From Allobaculum fili (GTDB lineage: Bacteria; Bacillota_I; Bacilli_A; Erysipelotrichales; Erysipelotrichaceae): 32,000 bases of DNA. The position numbers and the translations under genes are program-made. The stretch spans positions 1 to 32,000 of the forward strand of contig NZ_JAHDSX010000016.1 in assembly GCF_020969955.1 (NCBI RefSeq). Direction: 5' to 3'. This document shows, one piece after another, positions 1-25,569 of this stretch; position 1 is the first letter of the stretch, and every line of letters begins with the position of its first letter. Under the pieces are notes generated by a model that was not told the origin of the DNA, made no database searches, and was given only the letters and a program-made list of their open reading frames with translations.

Positions 1-156
1 AAAGAATTCATAGAAATACTCACCAGACACAAAGACCGGCCTATGGAAGAAATCAAAGATCTGCTCAGGATAGAAGCCTGTCAGGCACCTCAGCGCCAAT
101 CTGTCTATGAGCCTCTGGCCGCACAGGTAGAAGAATACCAGGCCCTCTTTGCCTAG
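1..156 (+). CDS. istA: IS21-family transposase IstA, C-terminal fragment (5' part outside the window)
   Basis: Frame 1 is open from the window edge to TAG at 154-156 and stops 14 nt before a clear istB. The istA-istB tandem order is the IS21-family rule. The 51 residues carry no motif I recognise, so the call is contextual. Confidence 0.5.
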   Translation, partial: KEFIEILTRHKDRPMEEIKDLLRIEACQAPQRQSVYEPLAAQVEEYQALFA

Positions 157-170
157 AAAGCGAGTATGAA

Positions 171-995
171 ATGAACATTGAAGCTTACGCCAAAAGGCTG
201 CGCCTGCCTTTTATCCGCCAGAACTATAAGGAACTGGCTGCCCAGGCGAGAGAAGATCACCTTGATTACGAAGAATTTCTGGAAAAGGTCCTCAAAGGCG
301 AAACGATCAGCCGCAATGAAAACTGTATTCAGAAGCGGATCCAGCTGGCGCATTTCCCAAATCGGATGTCTCTGGAAGACTTTCAAACGGAACATTTGAG
401 AATCGAAATCCAGCAGAAAGTAAAAGAGCTCTCAAGTCTGGACTTTATAAAAAATGGAGAAAACGTAATCCTGATTGGAAATCCAGGAACGGGAAAAAGT
501 GCCTTGTCTATCTGTCTGGGTATGGAAGCCTGTCTGAACAATATGAGCGTTCTGTTTATCGGGGTGTCCGATCTGTTGATCGAGATCCGTGAAGCCATGA
601 GCCAGAACCAGCTGCTTCGATATAAGAAACGTTTTGAAAGTTTTGACCTCGTGATATTGGACGAACTTGGATACTGCTCATTCGATCAGAAATCTGGTGA
701 GATTCTGTTTAACTTGATTTCGAGTCGCAATGGCAAGAAGTCCTTGATCGTCACAAGCAATCTGGAGCTCAACCGCTGGAGCGAGATTTTCAAAGATGAA
801 GTACTGACGTCAGCGATGATTGATCGACTGGCTTATAAGGCCTACATGATCAATATGACCGGCCAGAGTTACAGGCTTCGTGAAACCAAGAAATGGGTTG
901 AAGAAAAATCAGGCGGAAAAAATCAGAAAAAGCGCGTCACCCCCCTAGGGGGTGAAGGGAGAAGGAACTGCTCTGGAAAGAGCAGTCTTCTATAA
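171..995 (+). CDS. istB: IS21-family helper ATPase IstB
   Basis: Walker A GNPGTGKS, Walker B DLVILDELGY, IstB-type N-terminus (LRLPFIRQNY...) and C-terminal DRL...GQSYRL. The last ~25 codons may be read-through into the IS end. Confidence 0.92.
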   Translation: MNIEAYAKRLRLPFIRQNYKELAAQAREDHLDYEEFLEKVLKGETISRNENCIQKRIQLAHFPNRMSLEDFQTEHLRIEIQQKVKELSSLDFIKNGENVILIGNPGTGKSALSICLGMEACLNNMSVLFIGVSDLLIEIREAMSQNQLLRYKKRFESFDLVILDELGYCSFDQKSGEILFNLISSRNGKKSLIVTSNLELNRWSEIFKDEVLTSAMIDRLAYKAYMINMTGQSYRLRETKKWVEEKSGGKNQKKRVTPLGGEGRRNCSGKSSLL

Positions 996-2152
996 CCCAA
1001 AGTGGACCAGTTTTCAATTGACAAAAACAGCTCCTTCTGCTCATAGCGGATTTCAACTTTTTCAATGCCATCCATCAGCTTTTTGGTCAGCCGGACGTAT
1101 TCGCCCTCGCTCCGGCTTCGGCTTCTGGCTGCCTTTTGAACATAATCTTCGCAAAGAAGCGTACGAAGCGTATGTTCGAACATGCGAATTTCCTTGATCT
1201 GAAACCGTTCTTTGGCCTGTCGGTCCGGCGAGTCGTCCGCATTCAGTTCCAGAATGCGCTTTACCGTATCGTAGGATGCGGTCACAATCGACGGAAAATC
1301 GACGATATGAAGCGTATCGGCGGTGAGGAGGTACTGAAAGTTCAGAGGCCGAAAGCGCGCCTGTTCGATCCGGGCCGGACTGAAAATAGGATCTTTCCCC
1401 AGGAATTCTCGGACATCTTCCGTATGCAGAGAAGAGGGAAGCAAAATGTGAATTTTCCATGCGCCCTGGGAAATCAGCGTTTCGGCTATGTGCTGATCTT
1501 CGGGTTTAAAGATCGGGGGTTCGTCCAGTTTCTCAATCAGACGGAAGACGAAATTGCGCATGTAGGAAACTGCCAGCGCATTGGCCGCTCCGATGACCAT
1601 CGGTGCCGTCACATCGGTCGTCTGTTCAATGTAATCGTGGATTCCGTCGATCGAACGATTCGTCCGTTCAATGATTTCATGAATCCGTTTTGCGGTCAGC
1701 TCCATCTCCTCCGTGTTCCAGGGATCAAACCGAAAAGCCGGCAGTGCGATTCCTCCGTTTACACCGGACAGATCTTCGGGCAGACGGACCGATTCGTCAC
1801 TGAGCAGGATGACTTTTTCCGGACCGAGGGCCATGACACAGAGACCGATCTCAAAGAGCACGTTGTCCCGCATCGTCTTTTCCCGGATTTCTTCGCCGTT
1901 TCGAATGAGTGTCGTTTCATCATGCCCTTCGCAGATCAGAATGGCGTAGTCAAACGACGGAATCTTTTTGATGAGCATCGGCAGAAGCGCGATCTGCTCT
2001 TCGTTTACGGCCTGCGCGAACAGATCCCTCCATTCGCTGACCTGATAGTCATATTCTTCCAGGCGGTATTTCAAATGCTGAAGAATACCGCTTTTTTCGG
2101 AAAGACCGCTTGAAAACAGAACAATAGAAATGCCGTTCGCAGAATTTGTCAT
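923..2152 (-). CDS. cap12: TIR-like (CAP12/pfam10137-type) NADase domain fused to a STING cyclic-dinucleotide-binding domain; CBASS-type effector. The 3' end is probably chimeric with IS21 sequence.
   Basis: N-terminal aa ~8-135: ISIVLFSS...DYAILICEGHD...RDNVLFEIGLCVMALGPEKVILL, the TIR-like signature with the catalytic-type Glu (E101). C-terminal aa ~183-340 aligns by eye to human STING blocks recalled from memory: ALAVSYMRNFVFRLIEKL vs GLAWSYYIGYLRLILPEL, KIHILLPSS vs RLYILLPLD, IVDFPSIVTASYD vs LEYATPLQTLFAM, RQAKERFQIKEIRMFEHTLRTLL vs REDRLEQAKLFCRTLEDIL. GGAGG lies 5 nt upstream of the ATG at 2152. Confidence 0.85.
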   Translation of the reverse strand: MTNSANGISIVLFSSGLSEKSGILQHLKYRLEEYDYQVSEWRDLFAQAVNEEQIALLPMLIKKIPSFDYAILICEGHDETTLIRNGEEIREKTMRDNVLFEIGLCVMALGPEKVILLSDESVRLPEDLSGVNGGIALPAFRFDPWNTEEMELTAKRIHEIIERTNRSIDGIHDYIEQTTDVTAPMVIGAANALAVSYMRNFVFRLIEKLDEPPIFKPEDQHIAETLISQGAWKIHILLPSSLHTEDVREFLGKDPIFSPARIEQARFRPLNFQYLLTADTLHIVDFPSIVTASYDTVKRILELNADDSPDRQAKERFQIKEIRMFEHTLRTLLCEDYVQKAARSRSRSEGEYVRLTKKLMDGIEKVEIRYEQKELFLSIENWSTLGYRRLLFPEQFLLPSPPRGVTRFF

Positions 2153-2435
2153 CTTTCCTCCCCGTCTATGCCTTTTCTTCTTTGGACTGTCCTAAAATAG
2201 GAATACATTCCCATACAAAAGGCCTGCCTTTATTATAAAGAGATTCCCGGAAGGAAAATCCAGAGGAGGAAAACGGGTACGTTTGCGTGTGCAGTCGGGA
2301 TTCTTTCCTCACTTTTGCGTCCAGTATTCGGGGTACACCAGACGGCCAGAAAACATGGAGCAGGCCAGAACCCGTATAAAAAGCTAGACACTCATCTAGC
2401 TGGAAATCCACATAGAAAGAAGGAAAGAACAGAAT

Positions 2436-2963
2436 ATGATCACTTCAAAACCGATGACGCTTGCCGAAGTTTCCGGTATTGTGCTGGAACAGCTGCCCAA
2501 AGGCATTCTTCTGACGACGCAGGATGGCGATGTTCGCGATACCATGACGATCGGCTGGGGCGGCCTGGGAACCAACTGGGGAATGGATGTCTTCACCGTG
2601 TATGTGCGGGAAAGCCGCTTTACCAAAACGCTTCTCGATGCCAACCCCGTCTTTACGATCAGCTGCCCGATGCCCGGCATGGATGTCCGGTCGATTTTAG
2701 GCTTCTGCGGAACGAAATCCGGCCGGGACGTAGACAAGTTCGAAGCCTGCCATCTCCACACCGTTCCGGGCGAGGAAGTGTGTACACCGGCGATTCTGGA
2801 GTTGCCGCTGACGATTGAGTGTCAGGTGCTTTACGCCCAGAAGGAAGATCCGGCCAGCATTCCTTCCGAAATCCGGAAGCACTATTATCCAGAAGGGGAC
2901 AATCATACAATCTATATCGCACACATTAAAGCGGTTTATCTCCTGCAGAACGACGAACAGTAA
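2436..2963 (+). CDS. flavin reductase-like (FMN-binding split-barrel) family protein
   Basis: About 175 aa with LLTTQDGDVRDTMTIGWGGLG... and VFTISCP... patterns typical of the flavin reductase-like domain. GAAGGAAAG RBS. Confidence 0.7.
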   Translation: MITSKPMTLAEVSGIVLEQLPKGILLTTQDGDVRDTMTIGWGGLGTNWGMDVFTVYVRESRFTKTLLDANPVFTISCPMPGMDVRSILGFCGTKSGRDVDKFEACHLHTVPGEEVCTPAILELPLTIECQVLYAQKEDPASIPSEIRKHYYPEGDNHTIYIAHIKAVYLLQNDEQ

Positions 2964-9844: not shown

Positions 9845-11245
9845 GTGAAGAAACAGAACGTTCTGAAACGGACCGCCCAGTCGATTCGTCATTTTTTTGA
9901 ACATATCCATTCGTATTGGGAACTCTGGAAAAATCGAAGAGAGTACGGGGCGATTGAGTCCAACGCGACGATTCGAGAAATTCACGCGTTTGATCGCGTT
10001 AAGCCGGGCGATCTCGTCTACTGTGAAATGCCCATGAGCGACTGGGCACTTGCGGATGTCCCCAAAGGCCATCGCTGCCGTCCTTACCTGATTCTGGCCA
10101 AAACCGAAGACGGCCTGATCGGCTGTCCTTCCTCGCACAAGCGCCGAAAGAAAATTTCCAGCTGGGTCCAGATGGAACTGAAACCGGAAGATTACGATCA
10201 GTTCATGCTGTTTGGATCCCGTTACCACGCGCAGGGCAGCACGTTTGTGGATCTGAGCCACTGGGAGGAAATCCCGGCGCGTAAAGTGCTCTCTCTTTCC
10301 ACCAGCCTGAAAGAATCGGATCGACGCATTGCCGATCGAATTCTGCGCATGGTCGGCACTCGAAAAGTCAGCACGCAGAAAAGAAAAGGAAGTCCGAAAG
10401 AGGAAGAAACCGTCTGGCAGATTTCCGCGCGTCCCCAGTCCAGAATTCCAGGGGATATTGTTTCGCTTTCTTCCGGGGAGCCGTTTCTGATCAGTACGGT
10501 GGATCAGGATACAGCCTGGGGCTATCGGCTTTCTTCCCCCAGACAGTCTCAGCCCGATTCCAAGGTGCTTTCCGTCGAGAGCATCAATCATTACTTCTTC
10601 CCGTTCGCGTCCCTTCAAAAAGAGAAGCTCGAGCAGCCGGAGCAGTATCCGCTGATCAGCTTCTGCAAAACCTCTACGCTCCTGCAGAAAGAAAAGGAGC
10701 TCAAAGCGCGCAAGGCACAGGACGAGCAGAACGAAAACCCGGCTCGCAAAAAGACCGGTGCGGCTCCCGCGTTTGCCCGCAAGGAACGAATCCGGATCAC
10801 CCGTCAGTGCGGCGGGATCTTTCAGGATTTCTTCAGCGAAAACGAATACGTGTACATGTGGACGTATAAGCAGAGCGAAAAGTATCTGGATCTCGACGAG
10901 TTTTATGACGGCAACGTGGTGATTCGTGAAATCGAACGAAATCGTCTGACCGAACTGGGAATGCTCATTGCGGACGACATTTTTGAAGAAGTACTCGATA
11001 CGCTTGTAAAGCGCCGCTCACTCAGTGAAGACGAGGCACAGCTGCTGCGCGAAAACTTCTACAATCCGCCAGAAGCCGAAGAAGAGGCGCCAGCGGATTT
11101 AACCGACCTGACGGAAGAGAAAACGGAAGATGGCGTAACGGAAGAGCCAGGGATAGCGCAGGCCGAAGCACAGGAGATTCCAGAACCAGAGACAAATCCA
11201 GATCCGGATACGCAGACCAAACCGCAGCCAGACAATAAGATATGA
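9845..11245 (+). CDS. hypothetical 466-aa protein: N-terminal MazF/PemK-like domain, unassigned middle and C-terminal regions, acidic disordered tail
   Basis: GTG start with AAAGGAGG 10 nt upstream. Residues ~52-170 follow the PemK/MazF pattern: KPGDLVYCEMP..., HRCRPYLILA, LIGCPSSHKR, STFVDLSHWEEIPARKV..., SDRRIADRIL. The last ~60 aa are rich in E, D and P. Confidence 0.6.
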   Translation: MKKQNVLKRTAQSIRHFFEHIHSYWELWKNRREYGAIESNATIREIHAFDRVKPGDLVYCEMPMSDWALADVPKGHRCRPYLILAKTEDGLIGCPSSHKRRKKISSWVQMELKPEDYDQFMLFGSRYHAQGSTFVDLSHWEEIPARKVLSLSTSLKESDRRIADRILRMVGTRKVSTQKRKGSPKEEETVWQISARPQSRIPGDIVSLSSGEPFLISTVDQDTAWGYRLSSPRQSQPDSKVLSVESINHYFFPFASLQKEKLEQPEQYPLISFCKTSTLLQKEKELKARKAQDEQNENPARKKTGAAPAFARKERIRITRQCGGIFQDFFSENEYVYMWTYKQSEKYLDLDEFYDGNVVIREIERNRLTELGMLIADDIFEEVLDTLVKRRSLSEDEAQLLRENFYNPPEAEEEAPADLTDLTEEKTEDGVTEEPGIAQAEAQEIPEPETNPDPDTQTKPQPDNKI

Positions 11246-16668: not shown

Positions 16669-16720
16669 TTTACACTGCCGCTTTTCGGCCGAATCGAAAC
16701 GCTTCCCCTCGTCTGAGTTA

Positions 16721-18183
16721 TTATTTTTGGCTCATTTTCACTAGAAAAATGGTTCGATGAAAAATTTTGTGGAATTTGGGATTCTTGGTTGATGGGTTTC
16801 TTGAAGCATCGATGATCTTAAGAAAGAAATACCCATCATCCTTGAAACCATAAGCCTGTCGTCTGACGGTCTTGATCTTGTTATTGATTCCTTCAATCTT
16901 TTCTGAAGATATCCCGTAAATGGCATGCGAAAGGATCCCTTCATAATGGTTCTCGCTGAGTCGCGCAAACCATTTAAAGTGCTTGTTTTTCGTTCCTTTG
17001 CACGTGTCAATCAGTGAATTCAGCAGCTGCGCCATCTCCTCTGGATCTGAGCGTTTGAAGGCTCTTTCCAGCTGGTCTTTTACCAGATCGCAGGTCATGA
17101 AGAGAGAGTTCACCTTGAGCAGTTCGTTATACCGTTTGACAAAACCTGTTTTGGCAAGAACTGGCTTTAACCCAAACAAGGTGTTCTCGCCACCCATCAT
17201 GGCTCCAGCCTTCCCTTTTGCATCTTTGGAAGCCAGCGTTGCCTTAGAAGACATCAGAATATACTTCGACCCTTTGAGAAGCCTGGCCTGCACGATTTCA
17301 CCGCTTGCGATCAGCTCTCTCTCTGAGCATCCTTCCGGACTTCAGAGACCACTTTATCGTTAAAATTCTTAACGATATGAAAATAGTCAAATACGATAGA
17401 AATCCATGGGCATCGATCTTGAAATGCTTCCTGAAAATCAGAGTTCATGTCACAGGCAACAGCTTGAACATGACTCATCCATTCAATACCCGCATGATCA
17501 ATAAAATCGTATACGACCTGTTTCTACTTGCCTCTGGCAATCCAAAGAACATGGCCGGTTTCCAGATCGATGATATGGGTGGCGTATTTATGGCCGTTAT
17601 GAAGCTTGAATTCATCGATAGCCAGATATCGACTGCAGGTATCGGTTTTCTTCAGCACTGGTCCGAGTTCCGTCTGATCCGTATAAAGCCTGCTCAGCCT
17701 GGCTTTATCAATCTCGCCAACGAGATGAGCTCCGACACCAGTCCGCTCAGCGATTTCCTTCAGGGTATAGCGGCCGCTTGCCAGCAGATCTTCAATGTAC
17801 GATTCGAGAGCTGTAGTAATCGTATGCTTCTGTGCTCTGAATGGAATAGATCGCATTTGTGTATGATGGCCGTTCTCGCAGAAGAGGCGCTGAACCTTCA
17901 CGGTGACATGGATATAAGTCAAGCCAAAGGGAAGGTGGCGTAGTGTGATTGAACGAGATGATTTGATGTGCATCTTCTGACCGCAAACGGGGCAGATTCG
18001 TTCTTCATCAGTGACTTCACAGAGTACTCCGTCACACTGATAGATGGAATGATTTCCGGAAGCATCGATCCGGGAATAAACACCTGACTGGGTAAAGCCC
18101 GGCAGCGATGAGGGAATGAAAAGCAGACCGTTATTCGATTCATTGGAAACTTGAAAAGCAGCTGAAGAGTTAGTAGAGTACAT
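16721..18183 (-). pseudogene. ISL3-family transposase, disrupted by one in-frame TAG and one frameshift
   Basis: The N-terminal part (17524-18183) has the zinc-finger CPVCG... and HTH region. An in-frame TAG at 17524-17526 is followed in the same frame by KQVVYDFIDHAGIEWMSHVQAVACDMNSDFQEAF...FHIVKNFNDKV. The frame is lost near the (CT)5 run at 17315-17324. The C-terminal part (16721-17293) carries EGINNKIKTVRRQAYGFKDDGYFFLKI. Confidence 0.88.
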
Positions 18184-20570: not shown

Positions 20571-21467
20571 ATGGAAAAAAACAGGCTCTTTGTACAGATG
20601 AAAAATGTATAGAACCTCTTACAATCTTCAAAAATAAATCATTTTTCCAGCCCTGTACAGAAAGAGCTCCTGCAAAAACCAGGGATCGTCTTGGGATCAA
20701 GCAGGAAAGAACCATTCAGAAGAGCTTTCTCTATCGGGAAATACGCGATTTTCGGGGATCCGCTTACGTTTTGGAAAGTCAGTTCAGCCGCATCTTTAAA
20801 CGGCAGGAGACAGAGCCAGACAAGGAACCCAAACTTGGGATCTTCTCGCCGCCAATCGAAGCGCTGCAGTCGAAGAATAGACAATTTTGACGATCAAGAT
20901 AAATTGGATTGGACCTCGCATATTTTGATGTTTCTTCTTTCCAGCGCACGAGCGATTCAGCGCGCTCTGTCCGGGACGTTTGTAAGGTGGTATGGTATTA
21001 GGGCAAAAAGAGGACACCGGCTGATTTTGGGCTTGCGTACGCTTGAATATCGACAGAAATCGGTCGAAATCAAAGCGGAGCACAGCCGCTCAGAAAAGCT
21101 TTTCTGTGTCTTCTTTTCAAACTGAGTTATGGAAAATACAAATTGATTTTCAGAAATCGGGATAGATTTGTCCGTTTTTTTTGACGCTTTTAAACGGACG
21201 CTCAAAGGGGTCAGCAAAAGAGGCTAAAACGGATCGCACAGCGCATGGAAGCGTTTCGGTTTTCCAAATTTGTCTCTTCGAGATCCGTCCAGAATCTGTC
21301 CGGGTCTGATCAATATCCTTTTGGTGTTGGAATCGAGTTCGAATCGCCGCTTTGCCCGAAACGAAATCCAATTTGTATAGAACAGAAAAATACGGCAGTC
21401 CGACCAGGATTCTTTTCCGGCATCCGGAAAACTGGACGGCGGATCCGTTTTGAACAGGAAGGGTACT

Positions 21468-22889
21468 ATGGTTTTTTCCAGTCTGTTATTCGTCTTTGCT
21501 TTTCTCTCGATCAGCATGGGCATTTACTTGTGCGTTCCCAAACGCTATCAGAATACCGTTCTGCTCGTATCGTCACTGATCTTCTATTCCTGGGGCGGTC
21601 CGATGTATCTTCTCCTTTTATTAGGAGAAACCGCGATCAGCTGGGTGTGCGCCCTGCGAATCGGAAATCTCAAAAGCAAAAAGAAAAAGAAATTCTGGAT
21701 GACGGTGGAATGCGTCGCCCTGCTCGGGCTGCTCGCCATTTTCAAATACACCGGCTTTATCGGCTCTACTATGCAGGCGCTCACCGGCTTTCCAGAACAC
21801 GTCGCGCAAATCGTTTTGCCGATCGGCATTTCCTTTTATACGTTCCAGCTTCTGTCCTATGTCATTGATGTGTACCGCGGAGAAGTGAAGGCTCAGCGAA
21901 ACTACGCGCGCCTGCTTCTGTATTCTTCGCTGTTTCATCAGTGCATCGCCGGACCGATCGTTCGCTACAAAACCGTAGCCGATGAAATCGAACATCGTTC
22001 CGTCACGATGAACGATGTGTACGCCGGCATTCGCCGCTTCAGCATCGGTCTGGCCAAAAAAGCCATTCTTGCCAACGGCATCGCACAGGTCGCCGATCAG
22101 CTGATGTCTACCAACGCGCAGACGCTGGCCGCAACGCCGGTGCTTGGCGTCTGGATCGGCGCGCTGGCCTTTACGCTCCAGCTGTATCTCGACTTTTCCG
22201 CCTATTCCGACATGGCGATCGGCATGGGCCGCATGGTCGGTTTCCATTATCTGGAAAACTTCAACTATCCGTACATGGCCGTTACCGTTCAGGATTTCTG
22301 GAGACGCTGGCACATTTCCCTGTCTTCGTTCTTCCGGGATTATGTGTACATCCCGCTTGGCGGAAGCCGCGGCGGTACTCTCATTTACGTACGCAATATG
22401 ATCGTCGTCTGGTTTCTGACCGGTCTGTGGCATGGTGCCTCCTGGAACTATGTTCTGTGGGGCCTTTACTACCTCTGCTTCCTGCTGCTCGAACGCTTTG
22501 TCATTCGTCAGCGGATTCCCAACGGCTGGAACCGCCTGTATACCTTATCCGTAGTCCTCTTAGGAACGGTGATCTTCCGCTTTGAAGATGCGAACACGCT
22601 GCTTCTGGCATTCAAAGGTCTGTTTGGACTGAACGGTGCCGGCTTCTTCAGCTGGTCCGTATGGTCCGTCTTCCTTTCCAATATTTTCCTCATCGCCGCC
22701 TGCATGATTGGATGCACGACGCTGAGCGTCTGGATCGAACGTCTGTTTTCGGTTTGGGCCAGCAATAATTCCGTCGGCTTCGCCCTCTATTCCATTGAAC
22801 AGGTCGCTCTGCCGCTGTTCCTGCTTGCTATATCCGTGCTTGCGCTTATCGGCAACGCCTATAACCCGTTCCTGTATTTCCAGTTCTGA
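21468..22889 (+). CDS. MBOAT-family membrane-bound O-acyltransferase (AlgI/DltB/PatA-like)
   Basis: MVFSSLLFVFAFL N-terminus, FWRRWHISLSSFFRDYVYIPLGG and LTGLWHGASW (conserved MBOAT His motifs). Start set to the ATG at 21468 (GGAAGGG upstream). Confidence 0.9.
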   Translation: MVFSSLLFVFAFLSISMGIYLCVPKRYQNTVLLVSSLIFYSWGGPMYLLLLLGETAISWVCALRIGNLKSKKKKKFWMTVECVALLGLLAIFKYTGFIGSTMQALTGFPEHVAQIVLPIGISFYTFQLLSYVIDVYRGEVKAQRNYARLLLYSSLFHQCIAGPIVRYKTVADEIEHRSVTMNDVYAGIRRFSIGLAKKAILANGIAQVADQLMSTNAQTLAATPVLGVWIGALAFTLQLYLDFSAYSDMAIGMGRMVGFHYLENFNYPYMAVTVQDFWRRWHISLSSFFRDYVYIPLGGSRGGTLIYVRNMIVVWFLTGLWHGASWNYVLWGLYYLCFLLLERFVIRQRIPNGWNRLYTLSVVLLGTVIFRFEDANTLLLAFKGLFGLNGAGFFSWSVWSVFLSNIFLIAACMIGCTTLSVWIERLFSVWASNNSVGFALYSIEQVALPLFLLAISVLALIGNAYNPFLYFQF

Positions 22890-22942
22890 TCCGTTAACCC
22901 AAGTCGTGTGAAGCGGTCTTTCCGCTTCCTAGAAAGATTGAT

Positions 22943-24310
22943 ATGAAAAAACGATTTTCCAGAAAGCAGCGAAAAATTCTTTATTATTCGAGAGCGCTGG
23001 CGGTGGCCCTGTTCTGTCTTTGCATGGCCATCGGGACGATCAACGGACTGCTGCTGCCGCTGCGTCCCAATACTTCCGCGATCGAAAAGCGCGATCTGAC
23101 CCCGTTTCCGACGTTCAGCCTGACCTCCTTTATGGATGGATCCTGGTTTTCGCAGATTTCCACGTGGTACGCGGACAGCTATCCTGGCCGCGAAAAGCTC
23201 GTTGCGATGAACAACGACCTTCAGAAGCTCAAAGGCATTCCGCAAAACGAGATGGTCATTGGCGGCAATGTCACTGCCGATGAGATCGGCGGCAAGGAAA
23301 AAGCCAGTTCCAGCGCCGCGAGCAGCGAACAGGGACAGTCCGCCGACAGCCAGTTTGAAAAGCGCACTGAAGCGCCGGAAACCAATCAGCTGGCCGCCGA
23401 TATTGAAGACTCCATCATGGAAGGTCTGCTGATTAAAGACGGCGGCGCCTATGGCGGCTTCTACTTTGTACAGGAAGCCTGCGATACGTATACTTCCGCT
23501 CTCAACCGCGCAGCGGAGGAGCTGAAAGGGATCACCAACGTCTACTCGATTCTCGCTCCGGTAAACGCCTCGATCATGCTCGATGACGAAACGTACAAAA
23601 AGCTCTCCGGTTCCGATGCCAAACAGGGCATTGAATACTTCTATTCCCGCTACAACGATCTGGTCAAACCCGTTGGCACGTACGACATCCTGAAGGAACA
23701 TTCTTCCGAACCGCTCTATTTCCGTACCGACCATCACTGGACACAGCTTGGCGCCTATTATGCCTATCTCAACTTCTGCAAAGTCAAAGGGATCGAGCCT
23801 GTGAACAAGGATGAACTCGAACGTCTCGAATACTATCCGTTCACCGGTTCCTATACCGGCATGGTGCCGACCGCTACGTTCACACCCGATACGTTTGAAG
23901 CCTGGGTGCCCAAAGGCGGCAACACCATGAAAGTATTCACCGGCGACTTTGGCAACCCCAACAGCGATCAGTACTACGATGCGCAAGTCGTAAATACGTC
24001 CGAAGCCATCGACCAGTACAACCATTACATGCGCTTTATCGCCGGCGACCAGCCCTTCATTGAAATCGACAACAACGAAATCAACGACGGCAGTTCCGCC
24101 CTGGTCATCTCCGAATCCTACGGATGTGCGTTCGTCCCCTGGATCGTCAACAACTACGACAAAGTCTATGCGATGGATGAACGCTATGCGGAAGGCAACT
24201 TTGTAACCTTCTGCAAGGAAAACAACATCACCGATCTGATCGTCGTCAACAACATCCAGCTGGCCAACACCACCACACTGGCAGCTGCCATCGACGAAAA
24301 GCTCCACTAA
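22943..24310 (+). CDS. DHHW-family protein (SGNH/AlgX-like extracytoplasmic acyl-transfer partner of MBOAT)
   Basis: N-terminal TM anchor, then FRTDHHWTQLGAYYAY (the DHHW motif). Lies 53 nt downstream of the MBOAT gene. Confidence 0.85.
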   Translation: MKKRFSRKQRKILYYSRALAVALFCLCMAIGTINGLLLPLRPNTSAIEKRDLTPFPTFSLTSFMDGSWFSQISTWYADSYPGREKLVAMNNDLQKLKGIPQNEMVIGGNVTADEIGGKEKASSSAASSEQGQSADSQFEKRTEAPETNQLAADIEDSIMEGLLIKDGGAYGGFYFVQEACDTYTSALNRAAEELKGITNVYSILAPVNASIMLDDETYKKLSGSDAKQGIEYFYSRYNDLVKPVGTYDILKEHSSEPLYFRTDHHWTQLGAYYAYLNFCKVKGIEPVNKDELERLEYYPFTGSYTGMVPTATFTPDTFEAWVPKGGNTMKVFTGDFGNPNSDQYYDAQVVNTSEAIDQYNHYMRFIAGDQPFIEIDNNEINDGSSALVISESYGCAFVPWIVNNYDKVYAMDERYAEGNFVTFCKENNITDLIVVNNIQLANTTTLAAAIDEKLH

Positions 24311-24477: not shown

Positions 24478-25569
24478 TTAGTTTTCCGCAGGAGCGGCTT
24501 CTGGATTCTCCACTGGCATTTCAGTTTCCGCAGATGGAGTTTCGCCCTCCATAGGCTGATCCGTACCGGACTGCGCATCTTCTGCAGGTGCGTCGGTTTG
24601 AGAAGAGGCATCGCTTTGCAAACTGGATGTGAGCAGCGGCGCCTGCGCTGGAGCATTGTCGTCGGCTTTGGAGCCGGAGACGAGCGTGAAGTAAGAATAT
24701 TCGACGGGGGAATTGATTTTGGCGGGAACATCCACGCAGCCGATGCCGCTGGAAATGGTGTACGGGAAAGAAAGCTTCTGAGACTTGGATCGGTTGATCT
24801 GGGTGCTGCCTTCCACCGTCCGGTAATTGCCGAAAATCGGCCATTTCACCTGCGATCCGTGGGAGTTTCCGCAAAGCGCAAGATCGGGACGAAGCGAAGA
24901 ATTTTGTACCGCAAGCAAATTGTCGGGGAAGTGGGAAAGCATCAGACAATACGTGTCGCCGGGAATGGTGGACGCAATCGCTTCCGGGTCGGGCTGCAGG
25001 CCCAGACCGGCGAGGCGAATGCCGCTGCCCGAACCGTTGGAAAGAAGAACCGAAGCGTTGTCGAGCATTTCGACCTGGCTTCGACCGTAGACGTCATTGA
25101 CTTCGAGAAGACGGTTCATGGACGTCTGATCCTGTTCGCCATAGACGGCGAATTTTCCGCTCGGCGCTTCGACGCGGCTGATCCAGTTCACCATCTGATC
25201 GCGCATTTCACCGCTGACTTCCGCATTTTTCGAGAAGAGATCGCCGCCGATCAGCAGAACGTCCGGATCCAGAGAGGCGATTTCATCAAAGAGTTTATCG
25301 CCTTTTTCAACGGGGAAATTCTCGCCGTATTCGATGTCACTCAGATAGACGATCGAAAGCTGGTTCAGAGAGGCGGGAATTTTCGTCGAACGGATTTGCG
25401 AAAAGTTCGAGTGCACCTGGTAGGGGGCAACGAAAATGCCGTTGTAAAGGGTCAGGGTCAGGCAGGTCATGCAGAATACGGCAATGCCGATCACCCACAT
25501 GGAAATTGTCAGCCACAAAGGCTGTCTTCTTTTTCGGGAATGTACGCGATGCGCGGTTCGTCTGGCCAT
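24478..25569 (-). CDS. membrane-anchored calcineurin-like metallophosphoesterase (YkuE-like) with substituted metal-ligand motifs and a Pro/Ala/Glu-rich tail
   Basis: N-terminal TM. Motif order matches the family: YLSDIEYG, IGGDLF, VYGEQD, LSHFP, CGNSHGSQ. AAAGGAG RBS 8 nt before the ATG at 25569. Confidence 0.75.
   Translation of the reverse strand: MARRTAHRVHSRKRRQPLWLTISMWVIGIAVFCMTCLTLTLYNGIFVAPYQVHSNFSQIRSTKIPASLNQLSIVYLSDIEYGENFPVEKGDKLFDEIASLDPDVLLIGGDLFSKNAEVSGEMRDQMVNWISRVEAPSGKFAVYGEQDQTSMNRLLEVNDVYGRSQVEMLDNASVLLSNGSGSGIRLAGLGLQPDPEAIASTIPGDTYCLMLSHFPDNLLAVQNSSLRPDLALCGNSHGSQVKWPIFGNYRTVEGSTQINRSKSQKLSFPYTISSGIGCVDVPAKINSPVEYSYFTLVSGSKADDNAPAQAPLLTSSLQSDASSQTDAPAEDAQSGTDQPMEGETPSAETEMPVENPEAAPAEN

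Follow-up and report, generated by a model that had tools for sequence, protein, structure and literature searches.

The stretch of DNA analysed here (the window) comprises 32,000 nucleotides of contig NZ_JAHDSX010000016.1 from Allobaculum fili (assembly GCF_020969955.1). It is Allobaculum sp. Allo2-like chromosome, and an 876-aa protein that it specifies is encoded exactly in CP078088.1, the chromosome of Allobaculum sp. Allo2. The host is a mucin degrader from the human gut. Near the left end of the window, on the reverse strand, lies an open reading frame (ORF) with a predicted product of 409 aa which a preliminary description, made from the sequence alone, had called an orphan effector, in which a TIR domain of the CAP12 type is joined to a STING domain, lying in a Firmicutes-type housekeeping context with no cyclase nearby. 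On its 5′ side is a divergently transcribed flavin-reductase gene (PF01613), while its 3′-end overlaps the gene for IstB (PF01695, 218 bits) of an IS21-family insertion sequence (IS). Both neighbours had been named correctly, as had the context: the precomputed Pfam annotation of matching contigs, which spans almost the whole window, lists housekeeping genes and an ISL3 element only. Coordinates are collected in Table 1.

The call of a TIR-STING protein was borne out. Both domains scored above their Pfam cut-offs, PF10137 (CAP12-PCTIR_TIR) with 62.3 bits against 24.7, and PF20300 (prok_STING) with 46.8 bits against 27.1. The PADLOC model PDLC00729, an 'Effector TIR' of the cyclic-oligonucleotide-based antiphage signalling systems (CBASS), gave a near full-length match (E 6.7e-34). 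The nearest solved proteins by sequence were SfSTING (7UN8, the best PDB match) and ElSTING (9LMQ); a profile built from 40 homologues matched them with E values of 2.6e-20 and 6.2e-20, respectively, almost the whole length being aligned. An AlphaFold2 model of the intact 381-aa allele described below, computed with the 40 homologues as input, had a mean predicted local distance difference test score (pLDDT) of 82 and a predicted template modelling score (pTM) of 0.73. When this model was compared with the PDB using Foldseek, the best 16 matches were all bacterial TIR-STING or STING structures. Those matching over the full length were 9LMQ/9LMR and 7UN8, with target-normalised TM-scores of 0.56–0.72 (0.72 for 7UN8); crystal structures of STING domains ranked below them.

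In the TIR half, the motif RDNVLFEIG (aa 95–103) contains E101, which had been put forward as the catalytic glutamate and indeed aligns with the catalytic E84 of SfSTING. The NAD+ site of SfSTING includes F6, W33, F37, L47, R78 and N80, together with D110 contributed by the partner TIR domain (PMC9402430); in the alignment, F13, W41, F45, L60, R95, N97, E101 and D127 correspond to F6, W33, F37, L47, R78, N80, E84 and D110. This entire set was invariant across the 40 homologues, which are 37–46% identical. In the STING half the invariant positions were Y197, N200 and F201 (helix α1), R268, D285 and P287, while R266 was kept in at least 90% of the clade; this pattern argues that ligand binding is under selection. 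Both arginines belong to the strand ARFRPLNF (aa 265–272), taken in the preliminary description to be the lid, and D285 to the segment DFPS (aa 285–288); all three motifs were found at the places given for them. The lid arginines stand in RXR spacing, and the form ARxR is shared by the window protein and most clade members, one lower-scoring subclade keeping the second arginine only. D285 aligns with D259 of SfSTING and with the aspartate of the DxPT motif of other solved bacterial STINGs, and it occupies the position at which D252 of PcSTING touches guanine N2. That this residue is conserved points to a ligand containing guanine.

The absence of a cyclase from the window, also claimed from the sequence, held in every search made. 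ORFs lacking annotation gave no Pfam or PADLOC cyclase match and no informative PDB match, a hidden Markov model (HMM) of CdnE built from the positive controls described below found nothing among all window ORFs, and the GGDEF motif was absent from every one of them. Two ORFs, 24478–25569 (reverse strand) and 9845–11245 (forward strand), were considered as divergent cyclases and rejected, no support being found in Pfam, PADLOC or the PDB; judged by eye, the former looks like a membrane-anchored metallophosphoesterase.

The same state extends to the whole clade to which the protein belongs. More than 200 homologues (clusters at 90% identity) were found at E ≤ 0.001, nearly all of 350–380 aa and with both domains, and an exhaustive search gave 39 representatives at 50% identity that match at E ≤ 1e-30. 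A scan of one genome per species yielded 78 loci, which the scores of the clade HMM split into two groups. The first (>250 bits, 51 distinct loci, homologues 33–45% identical) is found mainly in metagenome-assembled genomes (MAGs) of Clostridia, Oscillospiraceae, Acutalibacteraceae, Lachnospiraceae, Erysipelotrichaceae and 'Bacilli' from human, rabbit, rodent and ruminant guts (rumen included), with four loci from Bacteroides, Phocaeicola and Barnesiella. The second (<90 bits) includes the canonical TIR-STINGs of ∼290 aa, mostly from Bacteroidota, and served as a positive control: each canonical TIR-STING gene is preceded by genes for a 312-aa cyclase and an E2-like protein, and the cyclase was recognised by PADLOC (Cyclase, PDLC00774, 382 bits) and by the Pfam families DncV-like NTFase and SMODS. 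An HMM of these canonical cyclases recovered all 15 canonical loci, of which 13 have a full-length TIR-STING. Applied to the 51 clade loci with flanks of up to 10 kb on either side, the same HMM gave no match with an E value below 0.87. Counted locus by locus, CdnE adjoins 13 of 13 full-length canonical proteins as opposed to 0 of 49 clade proteins of at least 280 aa. The clade also differs in having a C-terminal helical extension, variable in sequence and modelled with high confidence to about aa 370, which is missing from the ∼290-aa canonical proteins of the same scan.

Neighbouring genes were further surveyed with Pfam and PADLOC in four scans covering 237 genes for proteins of 200–650 aa within 6 kb of clade members. 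In none of the four did SMODS, DncV, Mab21, GGDEF or the PADLOC Cyclase models rank among the 25 families with the most matching members. The commonest neighbour family was TIR_2 (10 of the 237), in some cases only 16–112 bp away and on the same strand. Defence genes (AbiO, Nhi, MADS, PD-T4-6, AriA, ThsB-like and TIR arrays) were frequent beside clade members, which supports a role in defence; other clade loci had housekeeping neighbours (TGT, ArgJ, glycine cleavage, TsaD). A scan of the IMG/VR viral contigs yielded no clade member and thus gives no support to a prophage origin.

The 3′-end of the ORF proved to be different from what had been described. P0001, a 381-aa metagenomic protein, is 99% identical to the ORF product across residues 1–376, and in a DNA alignment with this IS-free allele identity extends to window position ∼1028, with none past it. 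The right end of the IS, ...CAATTGACAAAAACA, was fixed at position 1029 by comparison with other copies of the element. The ORF, described as one gene, is thus native in both of its domains, whereas its last 34 codons are IS sequence; the native protein has 381 aa. In locus L101, taken from CP078088.1, transketolase is followed by an IS of 2406 bp and then by the TIR-STING gene, and GCTCC is present on both flanks of the IS. The element has IstA (477 aa, with Mu-transpos_C_2) and IstB, TG...CA inverted repeats (imperfect: TGTTTTTGTAGTTTAAAACTGGTCCA and TGTTTTTGTCAATTGAAAACTGGTCCA), repeated subterminal motifs, a short target duplication and multiple copies, as is characteristic of the IS21 family; at least 20 metagenome contigs carry an identical IstB, and at least three different sequences adjoin the element on the right. 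It is a recent simple transposition into codon 375/376, in the window strain only. The 5-bp duplication means that the insertion deleted no DNA, although it does separate the gene from its native terminator. The junction lies past the end point of most clade members and in the low-confidence tail of the AlphaFold2 model; since the IS-derived tail is outside the conserved core, the copy of the window strain is probably still active. As a separate observation, the subterminal repeat TGGACCAGTTTTCAATT is present once in the window IS21 and twice in other copies (window 1000–1029 compared with L091–L095), the right end of the window element being 25 bp shorter.

Table 1. Features of the Allobaculum TIR-STING locus, in window coordinates
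Feature	Position	Strand	Basis or remark
Chimeric TIR-STING ORF, 409 aa: native codons 1–375, 34 IS-derived codons and a stop	923..2152	-	
Native part of the gene, aa 1–375 of the 381-aa protein	1028..2152	-	99% identity to IS-free allele P0001
TIR NADase domain of the CAP12/Pycsar type, aa 18–132	1757..2101	-	Pfam, alignments
Codon of catalytic Glu E101	1850..1852	-	Invariant in 40 homologues
prok_STING cyclic-dinucleotide-binding domain, aa 189–329	1166..1588	-	Pfam, profile, Foldseek
β-strand lid ARFRPLNF, aa 265–272	1337..1360	-	Alignments
DFPS, aa 285–288	1289..1300	-	Alignments
C-terminal helical extension, aa ∼334–376	1025..1152	-	Clade alignment, AlphaFold2 model
IS-encoded read-through tail, aa 376–409, FLSIENWSTLGYRRLLFPEQFLLPSPPRGVTRFF, and stop	923..1027	-	In place of native LSGAAK
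Shine-Dalgarno GGAGG, 4 nt 5′ of ATG	2157..2161	-	Read from sequence
IS21, right part (whole element ∼2.4 kb)	1..1029	+	IstB at 171–995 (+), IstA off-window; right terminal repeat ends ...CAATTGACAAAAACA at 1029
Target-site duplication GCTCC, right copy	1030..1034		Left copy off-window, seen in L101
Flavin-reductase gene, divergent	2436..2963	+	PF01613; syntenic in all alleles, not part of the system

The gene was found intact, free of the IS and encoding the 381-aa protein, at eight metagenomic loci, each from another sample (L001 and L102–L108; five distinct alleles). It lies there between the flavin-reductase and transketolase genes, a fixed position in the Allobaculum chromosome. In L001, the IS-free locus that extends furthest, a further 10 kb contained no cyclase; the genes there are pyridoxamine-oxidase-like, response-regulator, rpsI, rplM, truA and ECF-transporter genes. 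Among the six alleles available (that of the window strain and the five IS-free ones) no signs of decay were found. They differ from one another by 1–9 nucleotides, and the ratio of non-synonymous to synonymous polymorphism (pN/pS) was mostly ≤0.3, with too few differences per pair for statistics on this value. The copy in CP078088.1 has two 1-bp deletions in homopolymers (window 1400–2120 compared with L088:21780–22631) and is annotated as a 'nucleotide-binding protein' of 243–247 aa. These frameshifts are probably assembly errors, since many other genes of that chromosome are fragmented likewise (MBOAT, Hydrolase_3, ISL3 transposase, transketolase and IstA are split), a pattern suggestive of unpolished long-read errors.

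With moderate confidence, we conclude that the gene specifies a TIR-STING (Cap12-like) NADase of a distinct clade of ∼350–380-aa proteins that occurs chiefly in Firmicutes of the gut and rumen, never beside a gene for a cGAS/DncV-like nucleotidyltransferase (CD-NTase). By homology with the filament-forming NADases SfSTING and ElSTING (PMC9402430, PMC12421889), the product is most likely a nucleotide-gated, filament-forming NADase for abortive infection. A 3′,3′-cyclic dinucleotide, probably guanine-containing, would close the β-strand lid of the STING dimer, and lid closure would expose surfaces that drive the growth of a filament by stacking of STING dimers. The filament would bring TIR domains together, the active site being completed by pairing across dimers, and the resulting hydrolysis of NAD+ would arrest or kill the infected cell. 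The features that this mechanism calls for in the protein itself are all conserved. For the activating nucleotide, the leading options are synthesis by a nucleotidyltransferase whose gene lies at another place in the genome, and appearance only upon infection or invasion by a mobile element. The preliminary description had offered three explanations for the missing cyclase: that it lay beyond the IS and had been split off by it, that the effector was a relic, or that it was a stand-alone sensor of host- or phage-derived nucleotides. The last of these fits best, the cyclase-less state being clade-wide, with the origin of the nucleotide left as the options just given. Its fullest form, in which the clade lacks any dedicated cyclase and its members are stand-alone receptors firing on a foreign (phage or mobile element) or housekeeping cyclic dinucleotide, is a tentative proposal to which we give about one chance in four.

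Several observations weigh against the conclusion that this is a cyclase-less Cap12-like NADase with the proposed mechanism. The NCBIfam equivalog models for Cap12 gave only 76.6 bits (NF050172) and 72.8 bits (NF050171), not reaching their cut-off of 450, which indicates that the protein is distant from the characterised Cap12 proteins; by sequence it is to be placed as a distant subfamily within the structural family, not as an equivalog. A rare, weak cyclase match may hide outside the 25 most frequent neighbour families. The salt bridge E290–R307 of the SfSTING filament has no obvious counterpart in the alignment, and the copy of the window strain carries a foreign C-terminus of 34 residues. 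The register of the lid, moreover, depends on the alignment: HMMER sets R266 against the specificity arginine of 8HWI and 7EBL and R268 against that of 7UN8, whereas MAFFT sets R268 on the specificity arginine. The RXR motif has been tied to 'Class II' STINGs with a possible preference for 3′3′-cyclic GMP-AMP (3′3′-cGAMP), and replacing the stacking tyrosine with arginine reduced affinity for cyclic di-GMP (c-di-GMP) about 1200-fold (Ko et al., PMC8748872). Given that the HMMER and MAFFT registers disagree, the identity of the ligand cannot be read off the lid motif, and an assignment on that basis was dropped.

The conclusion also has to be set against four other explanations. That an ordinary type I or II CBASS operon was broken by the IS21, with the CD-NTase gene just past it, is suggested by the IS abutting the TIR-STING gene and by canonical TIR-STING genes directly following those for CdnE (and E2). 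A CD-NTase gene was sought immediately beyond the IS, and transketolase was found there instead (L101, from CP078088.1). The target duplication leaves no room for lost DNA, the eight IS-free loci have no cyclase between the gene and transketolase (nor does the further 10 kb of L001), and a canonical cyclase would in any case lie upstream of the effector, where Allobaculum has the divergent flavin-reductase gene. The broken operon is therefore almost certainly not the explanation. It is also quite improbable that the gene is a non-functional, drifting relic, whether its cyclase was lost long ago or the IS inactivated the window copy; this option of the preliminary description is unlikely for the gene itself. 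The locus does lack a cognate cyclase, the window copy has exchanged its C-terminus for 34 IS residues and been severed from its terminator, and the CP078088.1 copy is broken by its two homopolymer deletions. Those deletions, however, are probably assembly errors, and the IS junction is past the end of most clade members; all catalytic and pocket residues are intact and are invariant over ∼50 loci from different MAGs and genomes, while the eight population loci encode the intact 381-aa protein at the same site under the low pN/pS given above.

An arrangement of which we are doubtful, but which is the most serious competitor, is a split system, in which a normal effector activated by a cyclic dinucleotide is served by a dedicated CD-NTase, or by a diguanylate cyclase, whose gene lies at a distance in the 2.7-Mb genome. 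The conserved ligand pocket is in keeping with this, nothing in the data speaks against distant genes, and animal cGAS and STING are likewise unlinked; yet none of ∼50 distinct loci has a linked cyclase within 6–10 kb, whereas defence partners normally stay linked. Lastly, the STING domain might no longer respond to cyclic dinucleotides, the cue being, for example, an NAD-derived nucleotide made by neighbouring TIR proteins, or a phage protein acting on the clade-specific linker or the C-terminal helices. The frequency and closeness of TIR_2 neighbours, the longer TIR-STING linker and extra C-terminal helical segment of the clade, the large N-terminal extensions of some members, and a lid unlike the RX(Y/F) motif of c-di-GMP-specific proteins would all suit such a change of cue. 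Against it, conservation within the domain is highest at the residues that touch the nucleotide in solved complexes (α1 YxxNF, lid arginine and DxP[TS]), and the Allobaculum locus has no TIR neighbour. We give this explanation only a small chance of being correct.

Like SfSTING and ElSTING (Cap12; 7UN8, 9LMQ/9LMR), the Allobaculum protein is built of these two domains and has their fold (Foldseek E 1e-13 to 1e-16), and it shares the NADase active-site residues, the α1 YxxNF motif, the lid arginine and DxP[TS]. Identity is only 19–22%, however, and a longer linker and the C-terminal helices add ∼60–90 residues relative to the ∼290-aa canonical proteins and to the solved chains of SfSTING and ElSTING; its lid is ARxR in place of their RX(F/Y). 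SfSTING and ElSTING belong to CBASS of the CdnE type, whereas the Allobaculum gene has no adjacent CdnE or E2 gene and so lacks the genomic trait by which a CBASS effector is defined, an adjacent CD-NTase. FsSTING (6WT4), presumably a TM-STING encoded in a CBASS operon, was the weakest match to the clade profile among solved STINGs (E 0.001). This Class II protein, with its RXR lid (PMC8748872), likewise has two lid arginines in RXR spacing and an aspartate at the guanine-contact position, the register of the RXR being uncertain. PycTIR of the Pycsar systems and TIR-SAVED have the same CAP12/PCTIR-type TIR joined to a nucleotide sensor, and 8JSJ matches the TIR half; their sensors are cNMP-binding or SAVED domains, as opposed to STING in the Allobaculum protein. 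In animals, as in Allobaculum, the receptor gene is not linked to the cyclase gene. Animal STING is an adaptor for TBK1/IRF3, whereas the Allobaculum effector is a TIR NADase with a STING domain of the prokaryotic type (PF20300); like animal STING, it may sense a nucleotide for which it has no dedicated partner enzyme. Animal STING also senses bacterial cyclic dinucleotides directly; if the stand-alone interpretation is true, the clade would be a bacterial counterpart of this direct sensing of microbial cyclic dinucleotides.

Current accounts regard the separation of receptor and cyclase as something that arose in eukaryotes. The searchable literature yielded no account of bacterial TIR-STINGs that lack a cyclase, or of an orphan or stand-alone bacterial STING, an earlier mention being possible. 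Bacterial STING genes are said to adjoin CD-NTase genes (bioRxiv 10.1101/2025.09.04.674280; PMC8748872; PMC12421889). A clade consistently unlinked from a cyclase provides a concrete set of proteins with which to ask how STING fires without a cognate synthase. Its members are common in the gut Firmicutes of humans, rodents, rabbits and ruminants, and NCBI names their genes only 'nucleotide-binding protein'. Since defence finders that require a cyclase miss these genes, CBASS-like effectors may be under-counted in gut Firmicutes. In Allobaculum, the TIR-STING gene is a candidate determinant of phage sensitivity.

A recurrent neighbour of ∼610 aa was considered as a substitute signal generator and rejected: it is a membrane protein with tandem RCK domains and a RyR domain, not a nucleotidyltransferase, and it also occurs without TIR-STING. 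Proteins of this family (∼600–790 aa) accompany the TIR-STING gene in ∼17 of the 51 clade loci (among them L029:11113-12927; also L018, L019, L025, L026, L033, L037, L042, L052, L010 and L049). In most of these the two genes are directly adjacent on the same strand, and in a few they are 2–9 kb apart; the Allobaculum locus has no such gene. They have four or five N-terminal transmembrane helices, tandem RCK/TrkA-like domains and a C-terminal RyR domain, and in Bacteroides and Phocaeicola a split form consists of a 97-aa RyR protein and a 706-aa protein (L051:10999-13416, L054:2508-4924). The structural model (pLDDT 89) matches TrkA, the gating rings of Slo1 and CASTOR, and MthK. The protein has no PADLOC model match and its family is small, 30 homologues having been found. 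Where the gene occurs without TIR-STING, its neighbour is a TIR_2-MORN gene in L109 and an Abi_2 gene in L111; a 383-aa gene next to it in L111 was examined as a possible TIR-STING and rejected. Since NAD(H) and adenine nucleotides are ligands of RCK domains, TIR activity could gate this protein as a membrane effector, and the family may consist of nucleotide-gated effectors of the membrane, as yet uncharacterised, that act together with TIR NADases.

Some further features of the loci surveyed are recorded here. The TIR_2 arrays in which several clade loci are set (L003:1-7985, L005:13907-17095, L006:9201-15216, L017:2438-5797) contain fusions to WD40, TPR, MORN, Sel1, protein-kinase, NACHT-like and FGE-sulfatase domains. 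Among clade members, P0009/P0022 (564 aa; L008:8001-9695) have an N-terminal extension of ∼190 aa with no Pfam match, and P0135 (1313 aa) has the TIR-STING module at its C-terminus; such additions on the N-terminal side might be sensor domains fused to the module. A second, more distant lineage of cyclase-less TIR-STINGs, with a lid of the RX(Y) type, was seen in MAGs of Clostridia (L067:9803-10816, L068:9860-10831) in housekeeping settings (sigma factor, signal peptidase, RbgA and RNase HII; DegV, TetR and MMPL). In eight loci, the canonical CdnE-E2-TIR-STING operons of Bacteroidota (including L076:2773-6608 and L069:8372-12711) are followed by a pair resembling AbiLi/AbiLii, an AAA_21 ATPase and RloB. 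Within the window itself, an ISL3-family transposase gene (Zn_ribbon_ISL3 and DDE_Tnp_ISL3; ∼16720–18180, reverse strand) lies between the VanW and thiamine ECF-transporter genes; its DDE part is 251 aa long in L089, split in CP078088.1 and shorter in the ORF list of the window. Finally, one metagenomic strain (L090:13501-22067, compared with L089:13605-16447, window ∼21450–24310) has swapped the DHHW/MBOAT pair near RNase J for an island encoding DUF4420, a DNA methylase, DUF6339 and a Z1-domain protein, which is strain-variable and probably defence-related.

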